From positions 59,181-123,180 of the IMG/VR virus record IMGVR_UViG_3300021255_000040: DNA of 64,000 bases, one strand, 5' to 3'. The notes beneath the pieces are model-generated. The model ran no database searches. It saw only the letters and a program-made list of their open reading frames with translations, and was not told the DNA's origin. The stretch comes from a virus (lineage: Duplodnaviria; Caudoviricetes). Of this stretch, positions 31,749 to 42,935 are shown piece by piece. Every line of letters begins with the position of its first letter. The first letter of the stretch is position 1. The position numbers and the translations under genes are program-made.

Positions 31749-34700
31749 ATGGTATGTGTAGATAAAAAAAGCCCTGAGTTCCTGAGGTTAGCCAGACGCA
31801 TGAATCTGGATGCTAACATACTGGAGCAAATCATACATAAATACTACAGAGAGTCTGGTCAGGAGGAGCTTTTCCCCACTGATGTGTATGTCAATGCTCA
31901 GTTAGGGAGAACTCAGTACGAGGAGGCTATGCCCACTGTCAGACAGTTTTGGGAAAATGCTTACAGTCAGCCTAAGACTTTCAGTTCTGAAGGTGAATAC
32001 AAACGAGCTTGGGTTCAGGCTATCAATTATTTTCCTAAGGAAGCTATTGTCAATTACAAAGATACTAATGGCAACTTTATTCTGGCAGTAAGGAGACCTG
32101 TGGAAAAGCTTGAGAAAAACTCCAAGGGAATGATGATTGTGACTGATGCAGAAGGTAACAGACTGCCTATGCTGTCACATCAAGAAGCCAGGGATTATGC
32201 ATTAATTACCAGTCAATTGTTGCCTGATTCAGAAAAAAGTAGTACTTTTGCAGCTGATATGCGAAGTGTAACTGAAAACCAGGACTACATCTCAGATTCT
32301 CTGGATGCAGCAATGAAGACTGGTAGGTGGAATGACCAAGCTATAAAGGATTTAGAGAAACTAATTAAAAAGATACAAGATGGAGAAGTTGATTTTAAGC
32401 GAACAGTGGGAGAAAGATTCTCCTTCACGAAAGGCATCTCTGAAGCACATGCAGCAGCATCCCTTATCACAAGAGGATCTTATGGAGCAAGTCAAGCAAA
32501 ATCAGGAGCTGCGAAAGAAATATATGACAGAGATGCAGCCCAAGGCAGGCAGCAAGAAAGGCTGATAGAAGCATGGGCAAAGGCAGCTGACCTTTGGGTT
32601 AATGACTATACAGATGCACAAGGCCATAAAGCTAATAGTCTTGAGGGCTTAATGCACAGTCAATGGCAGTATATGGATCAGGCATCTGAAGCTGAAGTAT
32701 TCAGATATGATGATACTCAAGTCATTAAGTCAATTAGTCTGTCACACTCCAATGACAATGTGGCTAAGCTACTTGACAGAATAGCTCTTTTCAATCAACT
32801 ATTCCCTGAGACAGCTCTTACCATTCAAGGATTTGGCAGAGACAAGCTGGGACACTTCAGGGTTATTGCCACTCAGAATCTTATTAATGGTAAGGAGCTG
32901 ACTGATGAACAGCTCAAGAAGTTCCATGATAAGTATAAGCTTAAGGAGCAGGGTGCTTGGTTTGTCACTCCTGATGGTACAGCTCTTATCAATGACTTGA
33001 CCAATGCCAATGTCATGATTGATGAGCAGGGTAACTATTATGTCATTGATGCTGATGTAGTCTTCAACACTCCTGAAATGGGTGGTAAGGTTCTTTTTGA
33101 TAATTCCTTTGAGTTTCATCAGAAAGAAAGACCTGCCAGAAAGGAACGTCAGGTGATTGGCCCACAGCCATTTACATTTAATGATGGTACTGTAGTTACT
33201 GTTCCCTTCAAGCCCAATGAGCAACAGGCAGAGGCTCTAAATGCCATGAATGACTTCCTCAACTCTGATGAGACTACCATGACTCTATCAGGTTATGCTG
33301 GTACTGGTAAGACCTCGCTCATGGAGATTATTGCTCAGAAGGCAAAGAGACAGCATAAACCCATCATGTTCAGTGCTACCACCAACAAGGCTGCTGCTGT
33401 CTTGAAAGCAAGAGTCTCTAAGGCAGGTTTTGATGCTCAGACACTGAACAAGGTATTTGGTATTAATGTAGAAGTTGATTCTTCCAAGGCTTATAATGCA
33501 AGGAACCTGGTTACTGCTTTGAGAGATGCTGACATCATGCCTGGCACTACAGTAGTCATTGATGAAGCCTCTATGATTAATGAGGAGAACTATAGAATCC
33601 TCAACAGAATAGCCCGTGAGAATGGTCTGAAGATTATCTATGTTGGTGATAAGGCACAGCTTGCTCCAGTCAATGAGACTCAGGTCTCTAAGGTATTTAG
33701 AAACTCTGAAGGCAGGGTTGTAGAGCTTACTCAGGTAGAGCGTACTGATGACAATGCTATCCTTAAGGAAGCTACTAACATCCGCAATGGCCTGCCTCTG
33801 TCTGGTGAATCTAGTTTCAATGAAAGAGGTGAAGGTGTAGGGTATCTTACTCCTAAAAGCCGTGATGAGATTGGTAAAGTTATCAGGCACTACATCCAAG
33901 GACTCAAGGATAATCCTAACTTCTTCAGGATTCTGGCTTATACTAATAAAAAGGTAACAGAGTACAATGACTTTGTGAGAACTCTCCTTGGTTACACAGA
34001 CCCTATTCCTCATGTTGGTGAACCTCTGACAGGTTACAATAACTGGGGTTATGACTGGAGAACTAAGAGTTATAGATTCATTAACTCTGAGAGCTATAAA
34101 GTTACAAGAGTTGGCAAACCTGCACAGTCTAAAATTTCTGTGAATGGTCAGGAGTTTACTATGACCTATGTTCCTGTTACTATGGAGAACTCTCTTGGTG
34201 AGAGTGACACCTTTAATTATATGGATATTAAGGGTAATCAGGAGAATAGACAAGCAGCTCTTCAACTGGCTACTCAGAAGAAAACTCTGTGGGAGCAATA
34301 TAGACGTGCTGTTGGTAGAGAGGCTAAAAGTAACATCTTATCCCAGATTAACTCTATTGACCAGTTCCTCTTTGTCAATGACAATATTGAAGACCCAACT
34401 ACTCATAATCTGCTCCAGCCTAAGACTGTAGATTTTGGTTATGCCCTAACTATCCATAAGTCCCAGGGGTCTACTTTCACTCATGTTCTCATGGATGATA
34501 TTGATGTGGCAAAAGCAGGCAACACATTAAACAATGCTGCCAATGCTATGTCTGTAGTTGACTTGGGTGATGCAGGAATGGTTGCTGATGCTTCTATGGA
34601 AATGAGGGGCTCTGAGGATGTTGACTTAGGTGATTTGTCCTCAGTTCCTGCTGAAGAGCCATCTAGTAGTAATCCTAATATTGCTAATGTTCGTCAGCAG

Positions 34701-37700
34701 TTGGAATATGTAGGTGTATCAAGGGCTACCAATACTGTCACTATTATATCTAATAATGTAAAGACAGAAGGCAGTCCTTTGACTCCTCAGAACTTGATTA
34801 GTAAAGAGGACAGTAATCCTTCTAACAATGAGGTTCAAGGAGAGAATATTGCCTCCAATGGCTCAGAGTTTGCCAAGAAACTTACCAATCCAGGCAATAA
34901 CTTGCAGGTAGAGTACAAAGGCAAGACCTTTAGGAATGCAGAACATGCCTATCAGACATGGAAGTCTGGAGAATTTGATGAAGTAGCTTATAATAGTACA
35001 GCTTTCAAGTCTAAAGGTAGTAAACCTGCCAACAAACAGACTAACTATCAGACTATGGTAGATATACTCAAGGCTAAACTCCAGCAACATCCAGAACTGG
35101 TTGAAGGAATTACACAGAGAGGCGGAGAGGAATACCTTAAAGCCTCTACCCATAAGGTTACTGGTGACAAGTATTGGGAATCTACAGGCCAAAATAAGTT
35201 CATCGAGGCTCTTACTGAAGCTTACAATGCAATAAACCAAGGAGATAACCGTTCTAATGAAAAGACCAATCTGATTGCAGCAACTATTGGTCCATATTTC
35301 AATACTTCCTATGAGGATTATATGGCTATGGTTCCTGAGAAACAAAAGGAGATGAGAGAAGCCTTTGCTAAAGCTGCTCATGAAGTAGCAAAAGCATTGG
35401 GCATTCCTCTTGATATGAAGCAGGCTTCTTTCAATATTGGAGGCTATGAGTTTGAAGATGGAAGTTCTGTTATAGAACCGAGTTTTACTTTTAGATTTGG
35501 AAAAGATGCTACTCCCGAACAGGTAAGAATGTTTGCAGCTCTCATGGGAGATTTAGGATATGAACAACAAGAAGCTGTAGTTACTAGTTGGGATGTAGCA
35601 AATGAAGAAGAAAGGGATGGTGATAGACACTTTATTGAATTCAAAGAAGAGGAACTGCCACTACTTAAGCAGTTTGGAATTAAAAATTTTACCTTTGATA
35701 AAACAAGAGGTGTTTTGTCTGTCCTAAGTTTTGATACCAAAGATGTAGAGAATTTTTATAAATTAGTAGAAACTATAAAACAAAAAGAGAATGGACTTGA
35801 AGAAACTCAAAGAAGAAACCCCAGAAGAGCGTCGTTTAAGACTTTCTATGATGAGAAAGAAGGAAGAAGAGCTTTGTACGAAGCTTGGAGTGTCAATGCC
35901 AAAGACAGAAGTGCCGAAGAAGGAAGACCCTCTGGAAGTGACAATCTCGTTCAAGAAGCACTAGAAAAGCTTCAAAATAGAGAGTTACCCATTGATAGAG
36001 AAACTCCTACTGAACAACCACAGAAAGTGTCTCTACCCAGCTATGAATATTTCATGGACAGGTATGAAGATACTACTGTGGATGCTGTTTGGAAGATTCC
36101 ATTGCTTCAGCAGTTAGATTCACAACTGACTACTGAACTGACTCCTGAAGAGAATAATGAGATTCTTGACAGAATGACAAGGATTCTTGAGGCAAAGTCT
36201 CAGGAGGATTTGTTGGACTTGCAAACTGAAGAACCTAAAGAAAAGAAAACAGTGGAACAAAACCTCACTGAGTTTGAGAAGATGACCCAACAGATTAATA
36301 ACCTGTTGGACAGTAACATCATCTCTGCTTCTGAGATTAGACATGTGGCTGAACTGGTGGTTAACTCCATCAGTGACACCATTACTATTCTACAGAAGGA
36401 AGATGGTGCTGCTGAGAAGTTCTTCCCTAACATTGAGACCAAGATTGACTTTAAGACAGCTTCTCGTAAGGATATAGTTGAAGCCATTGGTATTAATAAC
36501 CTCATTCACAGAGCCAAGCAGCAGTTTGACCCTGAACAGAATGACTATGAGGACTTTGATACCATTGACCAGGCTGACCTTATTATAGACAACTGGGATG
36601 CCATTATGACTCTTGCTGCTGATACCTTTGCTATGACTGAGGGATTTGGTATCATGAGAAATTATGACAATGGTGGCTTCAACACTACTCAGGCTTCTAC
36701 CATTGACTATGATAACTTCAATGATTATAGCAACGACTCAGATGCTATGGCTGAATCAGAGAAGGATGAACAGGAGCATTGGCAGGTAGAGCAGAGAACT
36801 ATTGATGTGCTGAACTCTATGTCACAACTGGTAAGACTTGCCCTGCATGACTGCTACCAGATGGACAAGGATGGCAATAAGGTAATGAGTAAATGGGGCA
36901 TTGCTGAAAGAGTAAATCCACGTCAGGCAGTAAACAGCATTCTCAGATGGACTCAAGGAGCATTGTCTCTTGAGGATATGATTCAAAGGATGCAGAACAA
37001 AGCCACTCAGAATCCTTGGCTCAATCAGTTAGTAGAGAGGCTCTCAGACAAGAGTGGTCAAGAAGCTGACTTCCAGAGCCAGTTCTTTGGGGTATTCTCT
37101 AAGCACTTCCAGCCATACTCTGTAGTTCTGCTTGAGGATGGTAAGTATCACAGCATTCCTGTGAACTCTCATCCTGCACTCTCTGAGGCTATGCAGACTA
37201 TCACTACTCAGTTTAAGATTGGTGAGCATCCTTTGTTTACTGACAAGGGCATCAATGTGAAACTACTGGGTACTGAAAGAACTACATTCCCTGAAGCAGA
37301 TTTCAATTTGCATAAGGCTCTGAGTAATCTCCAGACCATCCAAGACAGGCTGAATCATGGTGAGCAATTCTCTGACAAGATAGCCAAGGATGCAACAGCT
37401 GAGATTATGGGTGTTTGCAGAGTACTGGGTTATCCTGTTACTGAGGAAATGCTTTCAGAGGCTATCAATGAGGAGAAGCTGAAGTACATGACAGACAAGC
37501 TTTACCACATGGTGAAGTCTTTGGATGCAGCACTGGAAGCTCAGAGAAGAGAGCCTAACAAGCAGTATAATCCATTTGCATTTGGTACTGACAATAGCAT
37601 TGGTGGTACTTTGAGAAACTTCCTCACTCCTATTACAGATACTCTGGAGGATACTGCTGTAAGTGCTTTCTATGACTCAGGCAAGATGTATCAGAGTTAT

Positions 37701-40700
37701 GTAACTCCAAGCTTTATGACCAAGCTGATGAATAAGTTCCGTTTGGAAGGTCAGGAGTTTGAGGACTTCATCATGCAGGAGTATGGCAACTCTGAATGGT
37801 TTAAGTCAGGAAAGAACCAATGGGATATATCAAGAGGTTGGAGAAATGTATGGTTACAGCTCCTTGCTACTGATGAGAATGCCCGTAAGGTGTTTGACCA
37901 TAAGGTAGAGCTGAACTTCAACAAGCACAATTACATGAGGAATATGAGTGATGCAGAGTACACCTTGTCTCTTATCACAGAGTATTTCGCAGAAACTGCT
38001 CAGAAGGGTCAGTCTATGGTTCCTGCTTGGTTCAGAATACCTATCATGTCTAACAAGCCCAGCTCTGAGTTCATTAAGTTCTATTCCTACAGAGGTGCTA
38101 ACTATAAGGATGAAATTATCTTTGGTTTGCATCAGATGTTTAACCAAGAACTCTCCAGAATTCAGACTGTTAACATGAGGAATCACTCTAAGGGTGATAG
38201 TGAGTTCATTGCTAACTTTGATACCAATGGTAGAAAGTTCAACTTCCTGCCTTTCCTCAATCAGTTCTTGGATAAGGCTAATCATTCTGAACTGACAACA
38301 CTGCTCAAGAAGAAAGTAGAAGGTCTGACTGCCTTGACTGCTGAAGAAGAGGCAAGACTCTCTACTCTGGTGGATCAGGCTATCAGGCAGGATATGGACA
38401 TAAGAGTCAATAAGATTCTGAATGAATGGGAGAACAGTGGTATCCTTGAAGCTGCTCAGAACATTGACGGCATTGGTACTGAGGAAGCTCAGATTAGGGC
38501 TAACCTAGAAAACTTCCTGTGGAATGATAACTTTGCCTCAAAGAACATTCTCCAACTGACTGTCACTGACATTGCTTTTTATAAAGATGCAGAAGACCTC
38601 CAGAAGCGTCTGGCTCAGATTCATGCTCCTGGTATCAGAGGTAATGTGGCTGCTACAGACTATGAAGGCAACAGAGTATCTGATGGTAAGTACAGAACTA
38701 TCCTGATTCAAGGCTTGCAGAAGTTCAAGACTGACTTAATAGCTAATCTTACAGAGGTATTTGACCGTAAGATAGCTGCTGCTCCTGATAGTCAGAAAGC
38801 CCAGTGGAGAGCATTGAAGGAAGACTTGGTTGGTGAGAATGGCAGATATACCAAGATTGATGTTACTGATGGTCAGGGTTATTCCTCTCCATCATCTTAT
38901 AGGAAAAAGGCATTCATCTTTGGTAGATGGTCACGTCAGGCAGAGGATATTTATCAGAAACTGCTGAAGGGTGATTATAACTACAGTGACTTAAAGGTTG
39001 CTTTCCAGCCTTTGAAACCATTTGTATATACTCATCTTCAGAAGGATATGGGTGTGGACAATGCTCCAATCCATTCAATGCCCGTACCTTTCCAAGCCAA
39101 GAACTCTGAGTATCTGCTCATCATGGCTGATGCATTACTACAGGGAGAGAAGACTTCCAAGCCTAATCTCCTGAGAGCTATCTATAGAGTGATGGAGGAC
39201 AGTGAGAGACTTGCTCCTACTAAGGGTATTGACACTGTTCAGTTTGATTCTGCCATTAAGTCAGGTCTTCAGGCTCCTATTGACCTCAATCCATTTGTAG
39301 ATATGGTTGGTGGCGAAGAAGCTGCCTTTGAGTATATGAAGGGCTTGATTTACAAGTTGGATGACCAAGGCAATCCTTCTGTTGAATACAACACTGATAC
39401 TTATGTTCATGAAGGTGAATATGAGGATTACTGTTTGCAGCAGGAGGTTCCTGAGCACTTCAAGGATCACTCTCAGGCTCATGGTTCTCAGATAAGAATG
39501 ATTATTCCTTCTGACCTTGATTTCTACAAGAATCCTAATGGTGACAGAACTGCTGAAGACAATCAAGTCTATTATGAGTGGACTGAGCCTGATGGTACCA
39601 AGAAGAAACTGAAGGCTGATGAGTTCCGCAAGGAGTATGAAAAGACTATTGCTGACAATATCAGGGAGAGTATTGATCTACTTTCTCAGGAACTGCATAT
39701 CAATAGCAATGACAAGAAAGAAAGGAACATTGCTCTGTCTAAGATTCTTCAAAGGGAAATCCTCTCATCTCCCAGATATGGTATAGACCTTATTCAGGCT
39801 TGTTCTATTGATAAGGAGACTGGTGAGTTCAGAATTCCTAAGGGAGACCCCATTCAGGCTAAGAGGATTGAGCAGCTTATCAACTCTATCATCAAGAACC
39901 GTGTGAATAAGCAGAAGATTGCTGGTGGCCCTATTGTTCAGGTAACTAACTTTGGTACTTCCCGTCAGCTGCACATCAGGTTCAATGATAAGAATGGTGG
40001 ATTGCTGATGACTCGTGAGGAGTATGAACAGAATCCTCAGAAGAAGAAGATGTCTCAGACTGATAAATTTAATGCCCGCTATGGTAAGAAAACTGCTTCA
40101 GGCAATATGACCTATGAGGAATATGTCAAGCAGAATCAGGCAGGTATTGCTTACTTTGAGGTATTTGTTCCTATCTGGTCTAATGAGCTGTTTGAGAAGT
40201 TTGCCAATCCTGATGGTTCTATCAATGTAGAGGCAATAGAGGCTACAGACCCTGAGCTCTTGAAGATGATTTCATACAGAATTCCTACTGAGGACAAGTA
40301 CTCTTGTGCTCCTATGAAGGTTGTAGGATTCATGCCAAGAGAAGCTGGTGATGCCATCATGTTCCCCTATGAATTGACTGAGATTGATGACTCTGACTTT
40401 GATGTGGATAAGAGATACACCATGCGTAAGAATATTCCCATCAAGAGAAAGGCAAAGCACATCATTCGCAAGGAACTCTTTGACATTGTGTCTGACAGCT
40501 ATCAGAAGCAATATAATAAGGAGTTGCCTGCCAACATTGCCAGTGAGATAGAGATATTCTTGGATTCTCCTGACACTATGAAGGACAAGAACAGCTTCAA
40601 TCAGTGGATGCACAGTCAGTATCAGAGAATAGCCTATACCACAGAGGCTCCTACCTCAGGCAGAACATACAGAGACAACAAGATTGTAGATATGACTTGG

Positions 40701-42935
40701 GCAGTACTGACCAATGAGATGACTGCTGACAAGATTCTCAATCCTGGTGGATTTGATGTGTTCAAAAGGAATGGTTATATGGTTGCTGCCTACAAGAATC
40801 CTGCCAACAACTATTCATGGGAACAGCTCCAGCAAATGTCTATTGATGAACTGAACAAATTGAGTTACACTGAGAAAGACCTTACATGGTTGGATACTCA
40901 GATTCAGTTCTATAAGCAGAATGCTGCTGCTGCCTCTCTGATTGGTGTGTTTGCTGTAAACAAGGTAGCTCATGCTACTCTAGAGAGCAACAATTATTAT
41001 GTAGCAGTTGATGAGGTTTGTGACCCACGTCCATTCATTATTGCTGATACTGAGTTTGGTGGTAGAATGAAGGTTGACCCAACTTATGATAGGGAAGGTA
41101 ATCTCATTGGTAAGACTATTGGTGCTGGTGTATCTGCTTCAGCTGATGCTGCCAAGACACCTGTGTTAAATCTGATGAACATCAACATGACTACTGCTGG
41201 CATCTTCAATACCCTGCTCAGACTGGGTATGGCTCCTAATGATGCTTCTCTGTTTATGTCTCAGGATGTGATAGAGAGAGTACTCAATGAGTTTAATCGT
41301 GAGAACCTAACTAACTATAAGCCACTCTCCACTATCATTGAGGAACATCTGTCAGAGCTGCGTGAGAAGCATAACATTTCTGATGATTCCAACATCAACT
41401 CAGAAGCCTTGTCAAGAGAGGAAATGGTAGATGGCTTGTTGCCTGTCAATCCTATGAATCAAGATAACCATGAGGTCATTGACTACAAGGTTCTGCTTGC
41501 TTTCCAGAAAGTAAGGTCATTGGTAGATGCTATGAGAAAACCTACATTTGCTACAAGATTCAACTCTGTCTCTTCAGCTGTAGGCCCACTCATCATTGAT
41601 AACCTTATTATTGAGCATAAAATGGAGCAGTTCACTGATGCAGCTACTGAGGATGGTACTCACTTCTATGATTCAGAAGGTACTCCTGTAGATATTGATG
41701 ACATCTTCTATGACCATCCTATTCTGAAAGAGTTCTCTCGCACTGTTGATATTGCCAAGTCCATGTTCTATGACATGCCTGCTGGTAGTAGAGGATTCAG
41801 AAACCTGTTGGCTACTCTGCCTGAGGGATTAATAGATAAGGTATATAATGACAAGAAGCTCTTGGATAACCTGAGCAACTTCTATCAGTCATACCTGCTC
41901 ATTGCATCCCGTATGGTGAATCCTGCCAACCTGAAGAACTACATTGATGGATTCCCTAAGTACTTCAATGAACAGAAGTTCAAGGAGAAGTACCATGACA
42001 ATGCACTGATTCAGGCTATTAGAATGAATGTAGCCAAAAGAACAGGCAGACCATTCCTCTCTATTAACATCACTGGTATTGATGAAGCTCAAAAGGAAGT
42101 ATATCGCAGTGCATGGATTGACCTACATAAGGATAATCCAGAATTATCTAAGAGGCTCTTCGAATACTGTTTCTTCCGTGCTGGCATAGGATTCAGTCCT
42201 AAGACATTCATGTCACTGGTTCCTGCTTATGTCAAGGAGAGACTCTCTACAAACTTAGATAATAATACTCAAGCTACTTATGTGGATACTTACAGAATGT
42301 TCCCAACAGTTAATCCTGAGGTTGTTATAGACCAATGGGTAAGAAACAATTGGGATAACAACAAGCTGGTTCCTAAGAAGGGTGGTGAAGGTACTCACTA
42401 TGCTGTAGATTTGAAGAGAGGTACTCTGATAGCAAGAGACCCAAAGGATATGGCTGACTTAAAGGGTAACAAGTACATTAAGACCCGTCATAATGGTCAG
42501 ACATACCTATGGAAACAACTCATTGCTGATAAGACTGCTGTCAACTATGTGATGGTGAAACCTCTAGGTAACAATGGTGAATATATGGAGATGAGTCTTG
42601 CAGATATTACCAAACCTCTGAGTGAAACCAAAGAAACCATCGAGGATATGCAGGAGTCTGAACTCCAAGCTACCAGTCCTGCTGAAGCTGATGCAGCTCA
42701 GGAGTCAAATGCTGATACAGTAACTGATGGTGAGAAGGCAAAGCAAACAGCAGAGTTGGCAGAACTCTTGATGAAACAGAATCCTAAGTTTAACAAGACT
42801 CAGGCTCTGAATCAGATAGAGAGGATGAAGGAGAAACCTAACATGTATGCAGGGTTCTTGGTGAATGTGTTTAAGCAAAAAGGTCTGAACCTGACAAAGG
42901 AGGAGGCCATTAAAGAATTCAAAAAAATGTGTTAA
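31749..42935 (+). CDS. Giant virion DNA-dependent RNA polymerase (crAss type) with N-terminal kinase, SF1B helicase, NADAR and possible SAM-lyase-like domains
   Basis: Catalytic DFDVD (about 40395-40409), YRIPTE and TDGQGY; helicase GYAGTGKT, IDEASM, VGDKAQL and TIHKSQGST; kinase NDLTNANV and VIDAD; NADAR AEHAYQ and DKYW..TGQN. Confidence 0.9.
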   Translation: MVCVDKKSPEFLRLARRMNLDANILEQIIHKYYRESGQEELFPTDVYVNAQLGRTQYEEAMPTVRQFWENAYSQPKTFSSEGEYKRAWVQAINYFPKEAIVNYKDTNGNFILAVRRPVEKLEKNSKGMMIVTDAEGNRLPMLSHQEARDYALITSQLLPDSEKSSTFAADMRSVTENQDYISDSLDAAMKTGRWNDQAIKDLEKLIKKIQDGEVDFKRTVGERFSFTKGISEAHAAASLITRGSYGASQAKSGAAKEIYDRDAAQGRQQERLIEAWAKAADLWVNDYTDAQGHKANSLEGLMHSQWQYMDQASEAEVFRYDDTQVIKSISLSHSNDNVAKLLDRIALFNQLFPETALTIQGFGRDKLGHFRVIATQNLINGKELTDEQLKKFHDKYKLKEQGAWFVTPDGTALINDLTNANVMIDEQGNYYVIDADVVFNTPEMGGKVLFDNSFEFHQKERPARKERQVIGPQPFTFNDGTVVTVPFKPNEQQAEALNAMNDFLNSDETTMTLSGYAGTGKTSLMEIIAQKAKRQHKPIMFSATTNKAAAVLKARVSKAGFDAQTLNKVFGINVEVDSSKAYNARNLVTALRDADIMPGTTVVIDEASMINEENYRILNRIARENGLKIIYVGDKAQLAPVNETQVSKVFRNSEGRVVELTQVERTDDNAILKEATNIRNGLPLSGESSFNERGEGVGYLTPKSRDEIGKVIRHYIQGLKDNPNFFRILAYTNKKVTEYNDFVRTLLGYTDPIPHVGEPLTGYNNWGYDWRTKSYRFINSESYKVTRVGKPAQSKISVNGQEFTMTYVPVTMENSLGESDTFNYMDIKGNQENRQAALQLATQKKTLWEQYRRAVGREAKSNILSQINSIDQFLFVNDNIEDPTTHNLLQPKTVDFGYALTIHKSQGSTFTHVLMDDIDVAKAGNTLNNAANAMSVVDLGDAGMVADASMEMRGSEDVDLGDLSSVPAEEPSSSNPNIANVRQQLEYVGVSRATNTVTIISNNVKTEGSPLTPQNLISKEDSNPSNNEVQGENIASNGSEFAKKLTNPGNNLQVEYKGKTFRNAEHAYQTWKSGEFDEVAYNSTAFKSKGSKPANKQTNYQTMVDILKAKLQQHPELVEGITQRGGEEYLKASTHKVTGDKYWESTGQNKFIEALTEAYNAINQGDNRSNEKTNLIAATIGPYFNTSYEDYMAMVPEKQKEMREAFAKAAHEVAKALGIPLDMKQASFNIGGYEFEDGSSVIEPSFTFRFGKDATPEQVRMFAALMGDLGYEQQEAVVTSWDVANEEERDGDRHFIEFKEEELPLLKQFGIKNFTFDKTRGVLSVLSFDTKDVENFYKLVETIKQKENGLEETQRRNPRRASFKTFYDEKEGRRALYEAWSVNAKDRSAEEGRPSGSDNLVQEALEKLQNRELPIDRETPTEQPQKVSLPSYEYFMDRYEDTTVDAVWKIPLLQQLDSQLTTELTPEENNEILDRMTRILEAKSQEDLLDLQTEEPKEKKTVEQNLTEFEKMTQQINNLLDSNIISASEIRHVAELVVNSISDTITILQKEDGAAEKFFPNIETKIDFKTASRKDIVEAIGINNLIHRAKQQFDPEQNDYEDFDTIDQADLIIDNWDAIMTLAADTFAMTEGFGIMRNYDNGGFNTTQASTIDYDNFNDYSNDSDAMAESEKDEQEHWQVEQRTIDVLNSMSQLVRLALHDCYQMDKDGNKVMSKWGIAERVNPRQAVNSILRWTQGALSLEDMIQRMQNKATQNPWLNQLVERLSDKSGQEADFQSQFFGVFSKHFQPYSVVLLEDGKYHSIPVNSHPALSEAMQTITTQFKIGEHPLFTDKGINVKLLGTERTTFPEADFNLHKALSNLQTIQDRLNHGEQFSDKIAKDATAEIMGVCRVLGYPVTEEMLSEAINEEKLKYMTDKLYHMVKSLDAALEAQRREPNKQYNPFAFGTDNSIGGTLRNFLTPITDTLEDTAVSAFYDSGKMYQSYVTPSFMTKLMNKFRLEGQEFEDFIMQEYGNSEWFKSGKNQWDISRGWRNVWLQLLATDENARKVFDHKVELNFNKHNYMRNMSDAEYTLSLITEYFAETAQKGQSMVPAWFRIPIMSNKPSSEFIKFYSYRGANYKDEIIFGLHQMFNQELSRIQTVNMRNHSKGDSEFIANFDTNGRKFNFLPFLNQFLDKANHSELTTLLKKKVEGLTALTAEEEARLSTLVDQAIRQDMDIRVNKILNEWENSGILEAAQNIDGIGTEEAQIRANLENFLWNDNFASKNILQLTVTDIAFYKDAEDLQKRLAQIHAPGIRGNVAATDYEGNRVSDGKYRTILIQGLQKFKTDLIANLTEVFDRKIAAAPDSQKAQWRALKEDLVGENGRYTKIDVTDGQGYSSPSSYRKKAFIFGRWSRQAEDIYQKLLKGDYNYSDLKVAFQPLKPFVYTHLQKDMGVDNAPIHSMPVPFQAKNSEYLLIMADALLQGEKTSKPNLLRAIYRVMEDSERLAPTKGIDTVQFDSAIKSGLQAPIDLNPFVDMVGGEEAAFEYMKGLIYKLDDQGNPSVEYNTDTYVHEGEYEDYCLQQEVPEHFKDHSQAHGSQIRMIIPSDLDFYKNPNGDRTAEDNQVYYEWTEPDGTKKKLKADEFRKEYEKTIADNIRESIDLLSQELHINSNDKKERNIALSKILQREILSSPRYGIDLIQACSIDKETGEFRIPKGDPIQAKRIEQLINSIIKNRVNKQKIAGGPIVQVTNFGTSRQLHIRFNDKNGGLLMTREEYEQNPQKKKMSQTDKFNARYGKKTASGNMTYEEYVKQNQAGIAYFEVFVPIWSNELFEKFANPDGSINVEAIEATDPELLKMISYRIPTEDKYSCAPMKVVGFMPREAGDAIMFPYELTEIDDSDFDVDKRYTMRKNIPIKRKAKHIIRKELFDIVSDSYQKQYNKELPANIASEIEIFLDSPDTMKDKNSFNQWMHSQYQRIAYTTEAPTSGRTYRDNKIVDMTWAVLTNEMTADKILNPGGFDVFKRNGYMVAAYKNPANNYSWEQLQQMSIDELNKLSYTEKDLTWLDTQIQFYKQNAAAASLIGVFAVNKVAHATLESNNYYVAVDEVCDPRPFIIADTEFGGRMKVDPTYDREGNLIGKTIGAGVSASADAAKTPVLNLMNINMTTAGIFNTLLRLGMAPNDASLFMSQDVIERVLNEFNRENLTNYKPLSTIIEEHLSELREKHNISDDSNINSEALSREEMVDGLLPVNPMNQDNHEVIDYKVLLAFQKVRSLVDAMRKPTFATRFNSVSSAVGPLIIDNLIIEHKMEQFTDAATEDGTHFYDSEGTPVDIDDIFYDHPILKEFSRTVDIAKSMFYDMPAGSRGFRNLLATLPEGLIDKVYNDKKLLDNLSNFYQSYLLIASRMVNPANLKNYIDGFPKYFNEQKFKEKYHDNALIQAIRMNVAKRTGRPFLSINITGIDEAQKEVYRSAWIDLHKDNPELSKRLFEYCFFRAGIGFSPKTFMSLVPAYVKERLSTNLDNNTQATYVDTYRMFPTVNPEVVIDQWVRNNWDNNKLVPKKGGEGTHYAVDLKRGTLIARDPKDMADLKGNKYIKTRHNGQTYLWKQLIADKTAVNYVMVKPLGNNGEYMEMSLADITKPLSETKETIEDMQESELQATSPAEADAAQESNADTVTDGEKAKQTAELAELLMKQNPKFNKTQALNQIERMKEKPNMYAGFLVNVFKQKGLNLTKEEAIKEFKKMC
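32220..32250 (+). promoter_or_regulatory. Promoter inside the RNAP coding sequence (TTG-N20-TACTTTTG followed by CA)
   Basis: Same elements and 20-nt spacing as the promoters at 10271-10301 and 48899-48929. Confidence 0.6.
32380..32565 (+). CDS. Nested +1-frame ORF (61 aa) just before the kinase domain; candidate inhibitor
   Basis: A-rich leader (ctaattaaaaagatacaag-ATG), upstream internal promoter and E/K/Q-rich helical composition unlike shadow ORFs. Confidence 0.55.
   Translation: MEKLILSEQWEKDSPSRKASLKHMQQHPLSQEDLMEQVKQNQELRKKYMTEMQPKAGSKKG
35791..35964 (+). CDS. Nested +1-frame ORF (57 aa, MDLKKLKEETPEERRLRLSMMRKKEEELCTKLGVSMPKTEVPKKEDPLEVTISFKKH)
   Basis: A-rich leader (aactataaaacaaaaagaga-ATG), TACCTTTG at 35690-35697 and charged helical composition; below the ORF-track cut-off. 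Confidence 0.55.
   Translation: MDLKKLKEETPEERRLRLSMMRKKEEELCTKLGVSMPKTEVPKKEDPLEVTISFKKH

Follow-up and report, generated by a model that had tools for sequence, protein, structure and literature searches.

A conserved +1-frame ORF nested in a giant gene for a polyvalent protein and crAss-like RNA polymerase probably encodes a small helical protein

Positions 35791-35964 of the window (the whole stretch of 64,000 nucleotides of viral DNA that was analysed here, called WIN in comparisons between loci) are probably a real overprinted gene, in which the +1 frame would encode a small helical protein alongside the main frame of a giant gene. Judged in one genome alone, this nested ORF is not beyond chance; what exceeds chance, from the comparison of sequences, is its conservation across homologues. 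The features referred to below are listed here with coordinates in the window.

31749..42935, plus strand: host gene; product of 3728 aa in which a polyvalent protein is joined to a crAss-like virion RNA polymerase
32380..32565, plus strand: first nested +1 ORF, 61 aa, within a 60-codon run that is open in all aligned sequences
35271..35786, plus strand: domain 4 of the host protein, two alpha/beta subdomains in an AF2 model (pLDDT 79)
35690..35697, plus strand: TACCTTTG motif, a suggested -7 promoter element, which lacks conservation
35740..35790, plus strand: A-rich stretch without structure ahead of the nested ORF, probably its translation-initiation region
35763..35954, minus strand: antisense ORF of 63 aa; rejected as a gene
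35791..35964, plus strand: nested +1-frame ORF, 57 aa in the window, 45-57 aa across the homologous loci

The source virus record is 123,180 bp in length and carries direct terminal repeats. From its N-terminus, the host protein contains a Kinase-PolyVal domain (PF18762; residues 268-438, E=4.6e-21 in Pfam), a RecD/Dda-like helicase (residues 490-923; Pfam AAA_30, E=5.8e-32, with PHROGs concurring on helicase), a weak Pfam match to NADAR (residues 1041-1144) and domain 4 (residues 1175-1346), and the RNA polymerase body extends from about residue 1410 on. The C-terminal 2228 aa are matched by PDB 6vr4, the DNA-dependent RNA polymerase (gp66) of phi14:2, with E=1e-15, and a DFDVD motif is present in the polymerase part. 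Based on the Pfam modules and the match to 6vr4, the host gene encodes an injected RNA polymerase of the crAss-like type, extended at its N-terminus by polyvalent modules; Kinase-PolyVal, further modules and a phi14:2-related body are all found in one protein, as in polyvalent proteins and crAss-like virion RNA polymerases. Among homologues of the host protein, the modules are shuffled. The stretch of the main frame that lies over the nested ORF had been described in an earlier note on this DNA as an R/G-rich linker. Its reading as NGLEETQRRNPRRAS is correct, but it is not a plain linker, because it contains two conserved motifs, FK[ST]xYDxKxxR[RK]xLYxxW and Lxx L[VI]Q[EK]AL.

The nested ORF starts with the ATG at 35791 and ends with the TAG at 35962-35964, exactly where the earlier note had placed it, and its 57-aa translation (MDLKKLKEETPEERRLRLSMMRKK...) was verified. 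It is located wholly within 31749-42935 and in a different (+1) frame, as an embedded gene should be. In the same note, the occurrence of the design twice in one gene, in the same frame, had been taken to suggest a general embedded-inhibitor scheme. The shared frame turned out to be trivial: the host gene has 211 stops in the +1 frame versus 498 in the +2 frame, so long alternative ORFs occur only in +1 (all thirteen ATG-started alternative-frame ORFs of at least 40 aa are in this frame), and the recurrence of the frame carries no information. When the codon order of the host gene was shuffled, a mean of 4.0 ATG-started ORFs of at least 57 aa was obtained, and 4 are observed; when synonymous codons were shuffled, 55% of the shuffles retained a +1 ATG-started ORF of at least 57 aa overlapping the nested site.

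Employing a region-restricted protein search, we found 24 giant proteins that share the nested region, and the DNA of eleven of them was compared. A profile made from the alignment of domain 4 (alignment A2, mean column identity 78%) added seven loci from viral, metagenome and genome collections; among the contigs, its matches were a single viral locus, six metagenome loci and one locus from genomes. A scan of viral contigs with the single protein gave no relatives, and a DNA search of the phage collection gave no match. An ATG-started +1 ORF of 45-57 codons was present at the aligned place in 18 of the 18 homologous loci, and all 11 full-length homologues possess the aligned ORF with its ATG. 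The further loci with the nested ORF are L014, L015, L017, L018, L019 and L024. Conservation of the +1 ORF among homologues of the 35270-35790 domain, to which the earlier note had pointed as the way of checking its proposal, was thus borne out in every locus.

The nested ORF persists at domain-4 identities of 31-35% (L018, L019/L013 and L024), and in most loci its stop is at the same aligned position, after ...SFKKH. In L017, the main frame is TAG-recoded with 12 in-frame TAGs, and the nested ORF terminates with TAA; L024, a contig with a GC content of 29% that was binned with a Bacilli MAG, has kept the nested ORF. A bacterial relic at L020:5913-6314 carries an ORF of 45 aa. In the main frame, the two residues spanning the nested ATG vary (N or Y, then G, E or V), yet their codons always read xAT-Gxx and the ATG is retained. 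Most of the other +1 ORFs of the window gain stops once the main-frame identity is below about 80%. Across 17 of 17 loci, the main frame and the +1 sense frame are the only ones free of stops over the nested stretch. The +1 runs that are open in all 12 aligned sequences have a mean length of 4.1 codons; the longest are 60 codons (at 32376), 58 codons (the nested ORF) and 45 codons (at 39357).

The nested stretch accompanies domain 4 in all homologous proteins, and it is missing in relatives that lack domain 4 but retain the downstream region. Where other modules are inserted, they start immediately after the nested stop. Domain-4 proteins followed by a small gene of its own were also looked for; the matches were giant-gene fragments only, and no free-standing, non-overlapping copy of the nested ORF adjoining a domain-4 gene was found.

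How far the main-frame protein by itself keeps the nested frame open was estimated by resampling synonymous codons in each locus, given the main-frame protein and the codon usage. The probability of an open nested frame was 0.12-0.82 per locus. The joint probability for nine lineage representatives, which are not fully independent of each other, was 2e-4, and for the same representatives, with the same limit on independence, it fell to 4e-6 when the ATG was also required. The main-frame protein forces the openness of the nested frame only partly. Both the open frame and its start are conserved beyond what the host protein leads one to expect, as is characteristic of an embedded gene.

The pattern of substitutions points in the same direction. 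In the register of the two frames, main position 3 is nested position 2, and main position 1 is the nested wobble position. Across five independent pairs, 60/32/30 differences fell on main positions 1/2/3 of the nested ORF versus 121/65/307 in domain 4 (Fisher p=2e-11), and those in the downstream stretch of the same pairs numbered 117/91/175 (p=1e-5 versus the nested ORF). The three closest pairs showed 22/8/6 in the nested ORF versus 51/21/154 in domain 4 (p=5e-8). Compared to a uniform distribution, the nested counts of 60/32/30 gave a chi-square p of about 0.001. WIN and L002 differ at seven nucleotides within the nested ORF; each of the seven alters the main-frame protein, and five of them are silent in +1. 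The share of differences at position 3 is the most extreme of the 11-kb gene in the nested region: among 705 windows of 40 codons, the ten lowest are all located at 35754-35889. At the nested ORF, amino-acid identity was 0.458 in each frame; the difference between the frames (+1 minus main identity) has a median of -0.23 over 677 windows, of which this one ranks first. With independent alignments of ten deep lineages, the z-scores were equal for both frames. As a negative control we took the ORF 39361-39495, which is open in all homologues yet shows normal position-3 and synonymous variation.

Some other measures have to be read with caution. Over the nested ORF, an OLGenie-like count gave a +1-frame dNN/dNS of 0.36 (bootstrap CI 0.28-0.47), but with ratios of this type values down to 0.35 are also found in the strongly constrained domain 4. 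The main-frame dNN/dSN was 0.66 over the nested ORF (relaxed) versus about 0.1 in neighbouring domains. The frequency of identical residues with differing codons drops to 0.21 from about 0.43, with the fall beginning near 35740; we gave this measure no weight, because in the variable region it samples mostly close pairs. The nested segment is also a mosaic, in that the left part of L003 is like WIN and its right part like L004; since L003 changes partner inside the segment, the low divergence in some close pairs is partly due to recent exchange. The excess of differences at position 1 over position 3 and the conditional openness do not depend on the mosaic, the codon measure or the OLGenie-type ratios. 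Subject to these caveats of recombination and method bias, the substitutions indicate purifying selection in the +1 register.

Signals for initiation of translation are present at the internal start. Using a position weight matrix trained on the upstream 25 nt of 29 long plus-strand ORFs, we ranked the upstream context of the nested ATG 1 of 324 internal ATGs in the host gene. The RNA around it (-30..+33) folds with an MFE of -1.8 kcal/mol, compared to -11 +/- 3.5 for other internal ATGs; in 17 of the 17 loci tested, the MFE at the nested ATG lies between 0 and -5.5 kcal/mol, and the RNA is A-rich. In two distant lineages (L019/L013 and L024), AGGAGG is positioned 8 nt upstream of the nested ATG, and this is its single occurrence in each of these loci.

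A promoter of its own is not supported for the nested ORF. The TACCTTTG motif is indeed at 35690-35697, as had been reported, but its role as a TAnnTTTG promoter element did not hold up: the aligned site is kept only in WIN, L002 and L010 (3 of 12 sequences). More generally, a Bacteroidota-type promoter (TAnnTTTG at -7, TTTG at -33) is not conserved, and most of the 12 sequences have no TAnnTTTG within 220 nt. In the main frame, TACCTTTG spells the codons F-T-F-D. Because the motif is not conserved and is dictated by these codons, we infer that translation of the nested ORF starts inside the giant gene's mRNA. The segment 35791-35964 would then be read in two frames, one giving the main-frame tail of domain 4 and the other an independent small +1 protein, with ribosomes starting internally on the giant-gene mRNA. 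Internal initiation would make a separate promoter unnecessary, and synthesis of the peptide would be confined to the time and place of giant virion protein synthesis.

The main alternative is that the nested ORF is a shadow of the main frame: a charged, purine-rich and Leu/Ile/Val-poor main frame leaves +1 open and no peptide is made. The apparent constraint would then reflect motifs in the main frame, biased codon usage, a segment that recombined recently, or selection on the RNA to stay A-rich and unstructured. Several results are in keeping with it, namely the synonymous shuffles, more than half of which retain an ORF of this size at the site, the per-locus probabilities of openness of up to 0.8, the ORF 39361-39495 that is open in all homologues yet unconstrained, the segment mosaic and the presence of conserved motifs in the main frame. 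Against these stand the joint conditional probabilities, with and without the ATG, and the position of the differences, which fall on main position 1 rather than 3 even in close pairs, the reverse of what coding in the main frame only would produce. The counts also depart from the uniform expectation under neutrality; selection at the level of RNA would not yield a 3-periodic pattern in the +1 register; and the nested ORF has the best-ranked internal ATG of the gene and a canonical Shine-Dalgarno sequence in two lineages. Taken together, these observations make a shadow ORF unlikely.

If the +1 frame is selected, it could also be entered by a programmed +1 frameshift near 35790, with termination at 35964, to give a product of the four N-terminal domains plus a 57-aa tail and without the RNA polymerase. 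Such a truncated product would be biologically sensible, and the site coincides exactly with the boundary at which the accessory domains give way to the polymerase body. However, a +1 stop lies 0-5 codons before the ATG in every locus, which leaves almost no window for the shift (in L004, L007 and L011, the stop directly precedes K-M), and there is no conserved slippery motif in the aligned codons near the nested start. The stops and the lack of such a motif, together with an ATG in all 18 loci, its start-like context and AGGAGG in two lineages, render the frameshift very improbable. A gene on the opposite strand has hardly any probability left. The 63-aa minus-strand ORF at 35763-35954 spans the nested stretch, and its wobble position coincides with main position 1; but stops interrupt its frame in 7 of the 17 loci that keep both the main frame and +1 free of stops, and in every one of the 17 the remaining antisense frames are stopped. 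This ORF was rejected.

As an overprinted gene, 35791-35964 would encode a peptide with a basic N-terminus, a long amphipathic helix and a variable charged spacer. An AF2 model based on 16 sequences (mean pLDDT 81) shows helices at residues 3-8 and 11-32 with a pLDDT of about 90, followed by a flexible or disordered tail. The conserved features are a hydrophobic stripe along the helix, a Gly cap with a hydrophobic residue after it, and a C-terminal [FY]T[VI]SFKK. Searches against Pfam, PHROGs and the ESM Atlas gave no recognisable family. With a profile of the peptide, 14 clusters at 50% identity were found among 1.84 billion representatives, all of them short proteins of 49-103 aa.

Domain 4, next to the nested ORF, matched no sequence family in Pfam, PHROG or PDB, and its model gave no match in Foldseek and a best VIA Z of 6.0. 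A SAM-lyase-like fold is not really supported, since T3 SAM hydrolase (7ock_L) was at rank 14 with a Z of 5.2, tied with many unrelated folds. The description of this neighbouring domain in the earlier note as potentially toxic is therefore unfounded, and with no recognisable family or fold on the side of domain 4, the idea of an antidote stays conjectural. The peptide may act on domain 4 in the producer cell, as a binding partner, a chaperone or an inhibitor. We regard such a partnership as possible but doubtful; the link between the two is their physical overlap. Overprinting would keep the partner gene beside a module located in the middle of a polyprotein, and, if the peptide is a partner of domain 4, this would explain how a polyprotein module keeps its cognate regulator linked.

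The first nested ORF, 32380-32565, bears on whether the arrangement occurs more than once. Between L004 and L007 and between L003 and L006, differences at position 1 equal or exceed those at position 3; the context of its ATG ranks 3 of 324, and the MFE there is -1.7. On this basis it is a probable second overlapping gene, with signals similar to those of the ORF at 35791 but weaker. The proposal that the same design occurs twice in one gene is plausible to this extent. It may be speculated that, in giant injected polyvalent proteins, an accessory module and an out-of-frame partner gene inside it form a self-contained cassette (domain 4 with the peptide, the kinase region with the 32380 ORF), in which the peptide neutralises or chaperones the module in the producer cell and the cassette moves between phages as a unit. 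We consider this improbable as it stands; if true, it would amount to a general design of an 'immunity gene inside the effector'.

ORFs nested on the same strand are dropped by gene callers, and a conserved small protein in the largest gene of a crAss-like phage lineage would therefore be invisible to annotation. If real, it represents a new small-protein family in abundant phages of animal-associated communities, and it would show that extra genes can be hidden in polyvalent injected proteins. Changes that are silent in the main frame can remove the nested ATG (AAT to AAC) or insert a nested stop (CTT GAA to CTA GAA), which provides a clean experimental handle. A literature search found no report of overlapping genes in crAss-like phages.

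Embedded genes are well established in other phages. Rz/Rz1 of lambda is an embedded spanin gene pair whose two products work as partners, and in PhiX174 gene B lies within A and gene E within D, on the same strand. From general knowledge of these systems, the nested ORF resembles them in being small, in lying on the same strand inside a larger gene in the +1 frame, and in having its own start codon, conserved along with the host gene. Its peptide family has no sequence relation to the embedded genes of either phage; unlike Rz/Rz1, the peptide has neither a signal peptide nor a lipobox and no relation to lysis. The host also differs from that of both systems, being a 3728-aa virion RNA polymerase/polyvalent gene in a 123-kb genome, where compression is no obvious driver. 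Compared to toxin-immunity and type II toxin-antitoxin cassettes, the similarity lies in a small charged helical protein that is tightly encoded and inherited with a larger domain; the differences are that the nested gene overlaps its would-be partner instead of following it, that there is no autoregulated promoter and that no toxin domain was identified. Like gp66 of phi14:2 (6vr4), the host protein has a C-terminal polymerase, with about 2200 aa matching and the DFDVD motif in common, but unlike in gp66 the polymerase body is preceded by accessory domains that make up about 1400 aa. It is in this accessory extension, outside the polymerase that matches gp66, that the nested ORF is located. 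Polyvalent proteins of phages and conjugative elements were reportedly described by Iyer et al. in 2017; the host gene is like them in having Kinase-PolyVal and a chain of modules ahead of a core enzyme, and the nested ORF would extend that picture by an out-of-frame gene riding within a module.

Two further +1-frame ORFs were noted in the giant gene besides the main nested ORF (window 35791-35964):

Window 32380-32565, + strand: nested +1 ORF, 61 aa, within a 60-codon run open across all aligned homologues.
Window 39361-39495, + strand: +1 ORF, 44 aa, open in 11/11 homologues.

For the first of these, differences at main-frame position 1 (the +1-frame wobble) equalled or exceeded those at position 3 in the pairs L004-L007 and L003-L006. 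Its ATG ranked 3rd for upstream context among the 324 internal ATGs of the giant gene, with a fold energy (MFE) of -1.7 kcal/mol around it. L003, L004, L006 and L007 encode an additional +1 peptide (...MQELxxxxxxQQMxxYLESHRP...), whose conservation exceeds that of the main frame. This region aligns poorly, with a coverage of only ~50%. The ORF at 39361-39495 showed a position 3 difference of 0.45, similar to its flanks, as in ordinary synonymous variation. It is a shadow ORF, held open through conserved main-frame sequence, and it serves as a negative control.

At the start of the main nested ORF, a Shine-Dalgarno-like motif was found in some homologous loci:

L019/L013:2005-2023 and L024:1496-1514: AGGAGG, separated by 8 nt from the nested ATG that follows it, the sole AGGAGG in each locus.

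In these loci the motif is coded by a conserved main-frame LGGN[YF]NG, and no AGGAGG-type motif was present in lineages with A-rich leaders before the nested ATG.

The giant-gene homologue of L016/L017 (Ga0256407_10004856, Ga0310695_10006332) carries 12 in-frame TAG codons within 3.5 kb of main frame and no in-frame TAA or TGA; evidently, TAG is read as a sense codon in this phage lineage. The nested ORF there is free of TAG and stops at TAA.

Domain 4 (window 35271-35786), which directly precedes the nested ORF, was modelled as two alpha/beta subdomains, and no clear structural relative was found. A 'SAM-lyase-like' assignment gained no real support: the match to 7ock_L reached only Z 5.2, level with many unrelated folds. 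In L018 (ERZ808270 NODE-21, 101 kb), domain 4 and the nested ORF are fused directly to the polymerase stretch equivalent to ~window residue 2900 (...GGIAYYEVFAPIYTNELF...), which gives the giant gene a quite different architecture.

A 409-bp relic with 76% identity to the L018 phage gene was observed at L020:5913-6314 (also L021-L023; NCBI GCA_002406175.1 contig DHKS01000097.1). Its location is intergenic on a bacterial chromosome, flanked on one side by a trypsin-like gene and on the other by a 217-aa gene, with dnaE and thioredoxin genes nearby. Its main frame is disrupted by a TAA replacing Tyr and, further on, by a frameshift; its nested ORF (P0034, L020:6001-6138, 45 aa) is unbroken and was found on at least 23 contigs.

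The position just after the aligned nested stop (window ~35980) is exactly where L010, L011, L012 and P0013-P0015 have additional modules, 150-470 aa long, inserted. One of them contains the motif FVFGSNPEGRHGAGAAK, and a second NADAR-like stretch is present in L012. Inside the nested ORF, L003 changes from window-like to L004-like sequence, which makes this site a recombination hotspot between modules.
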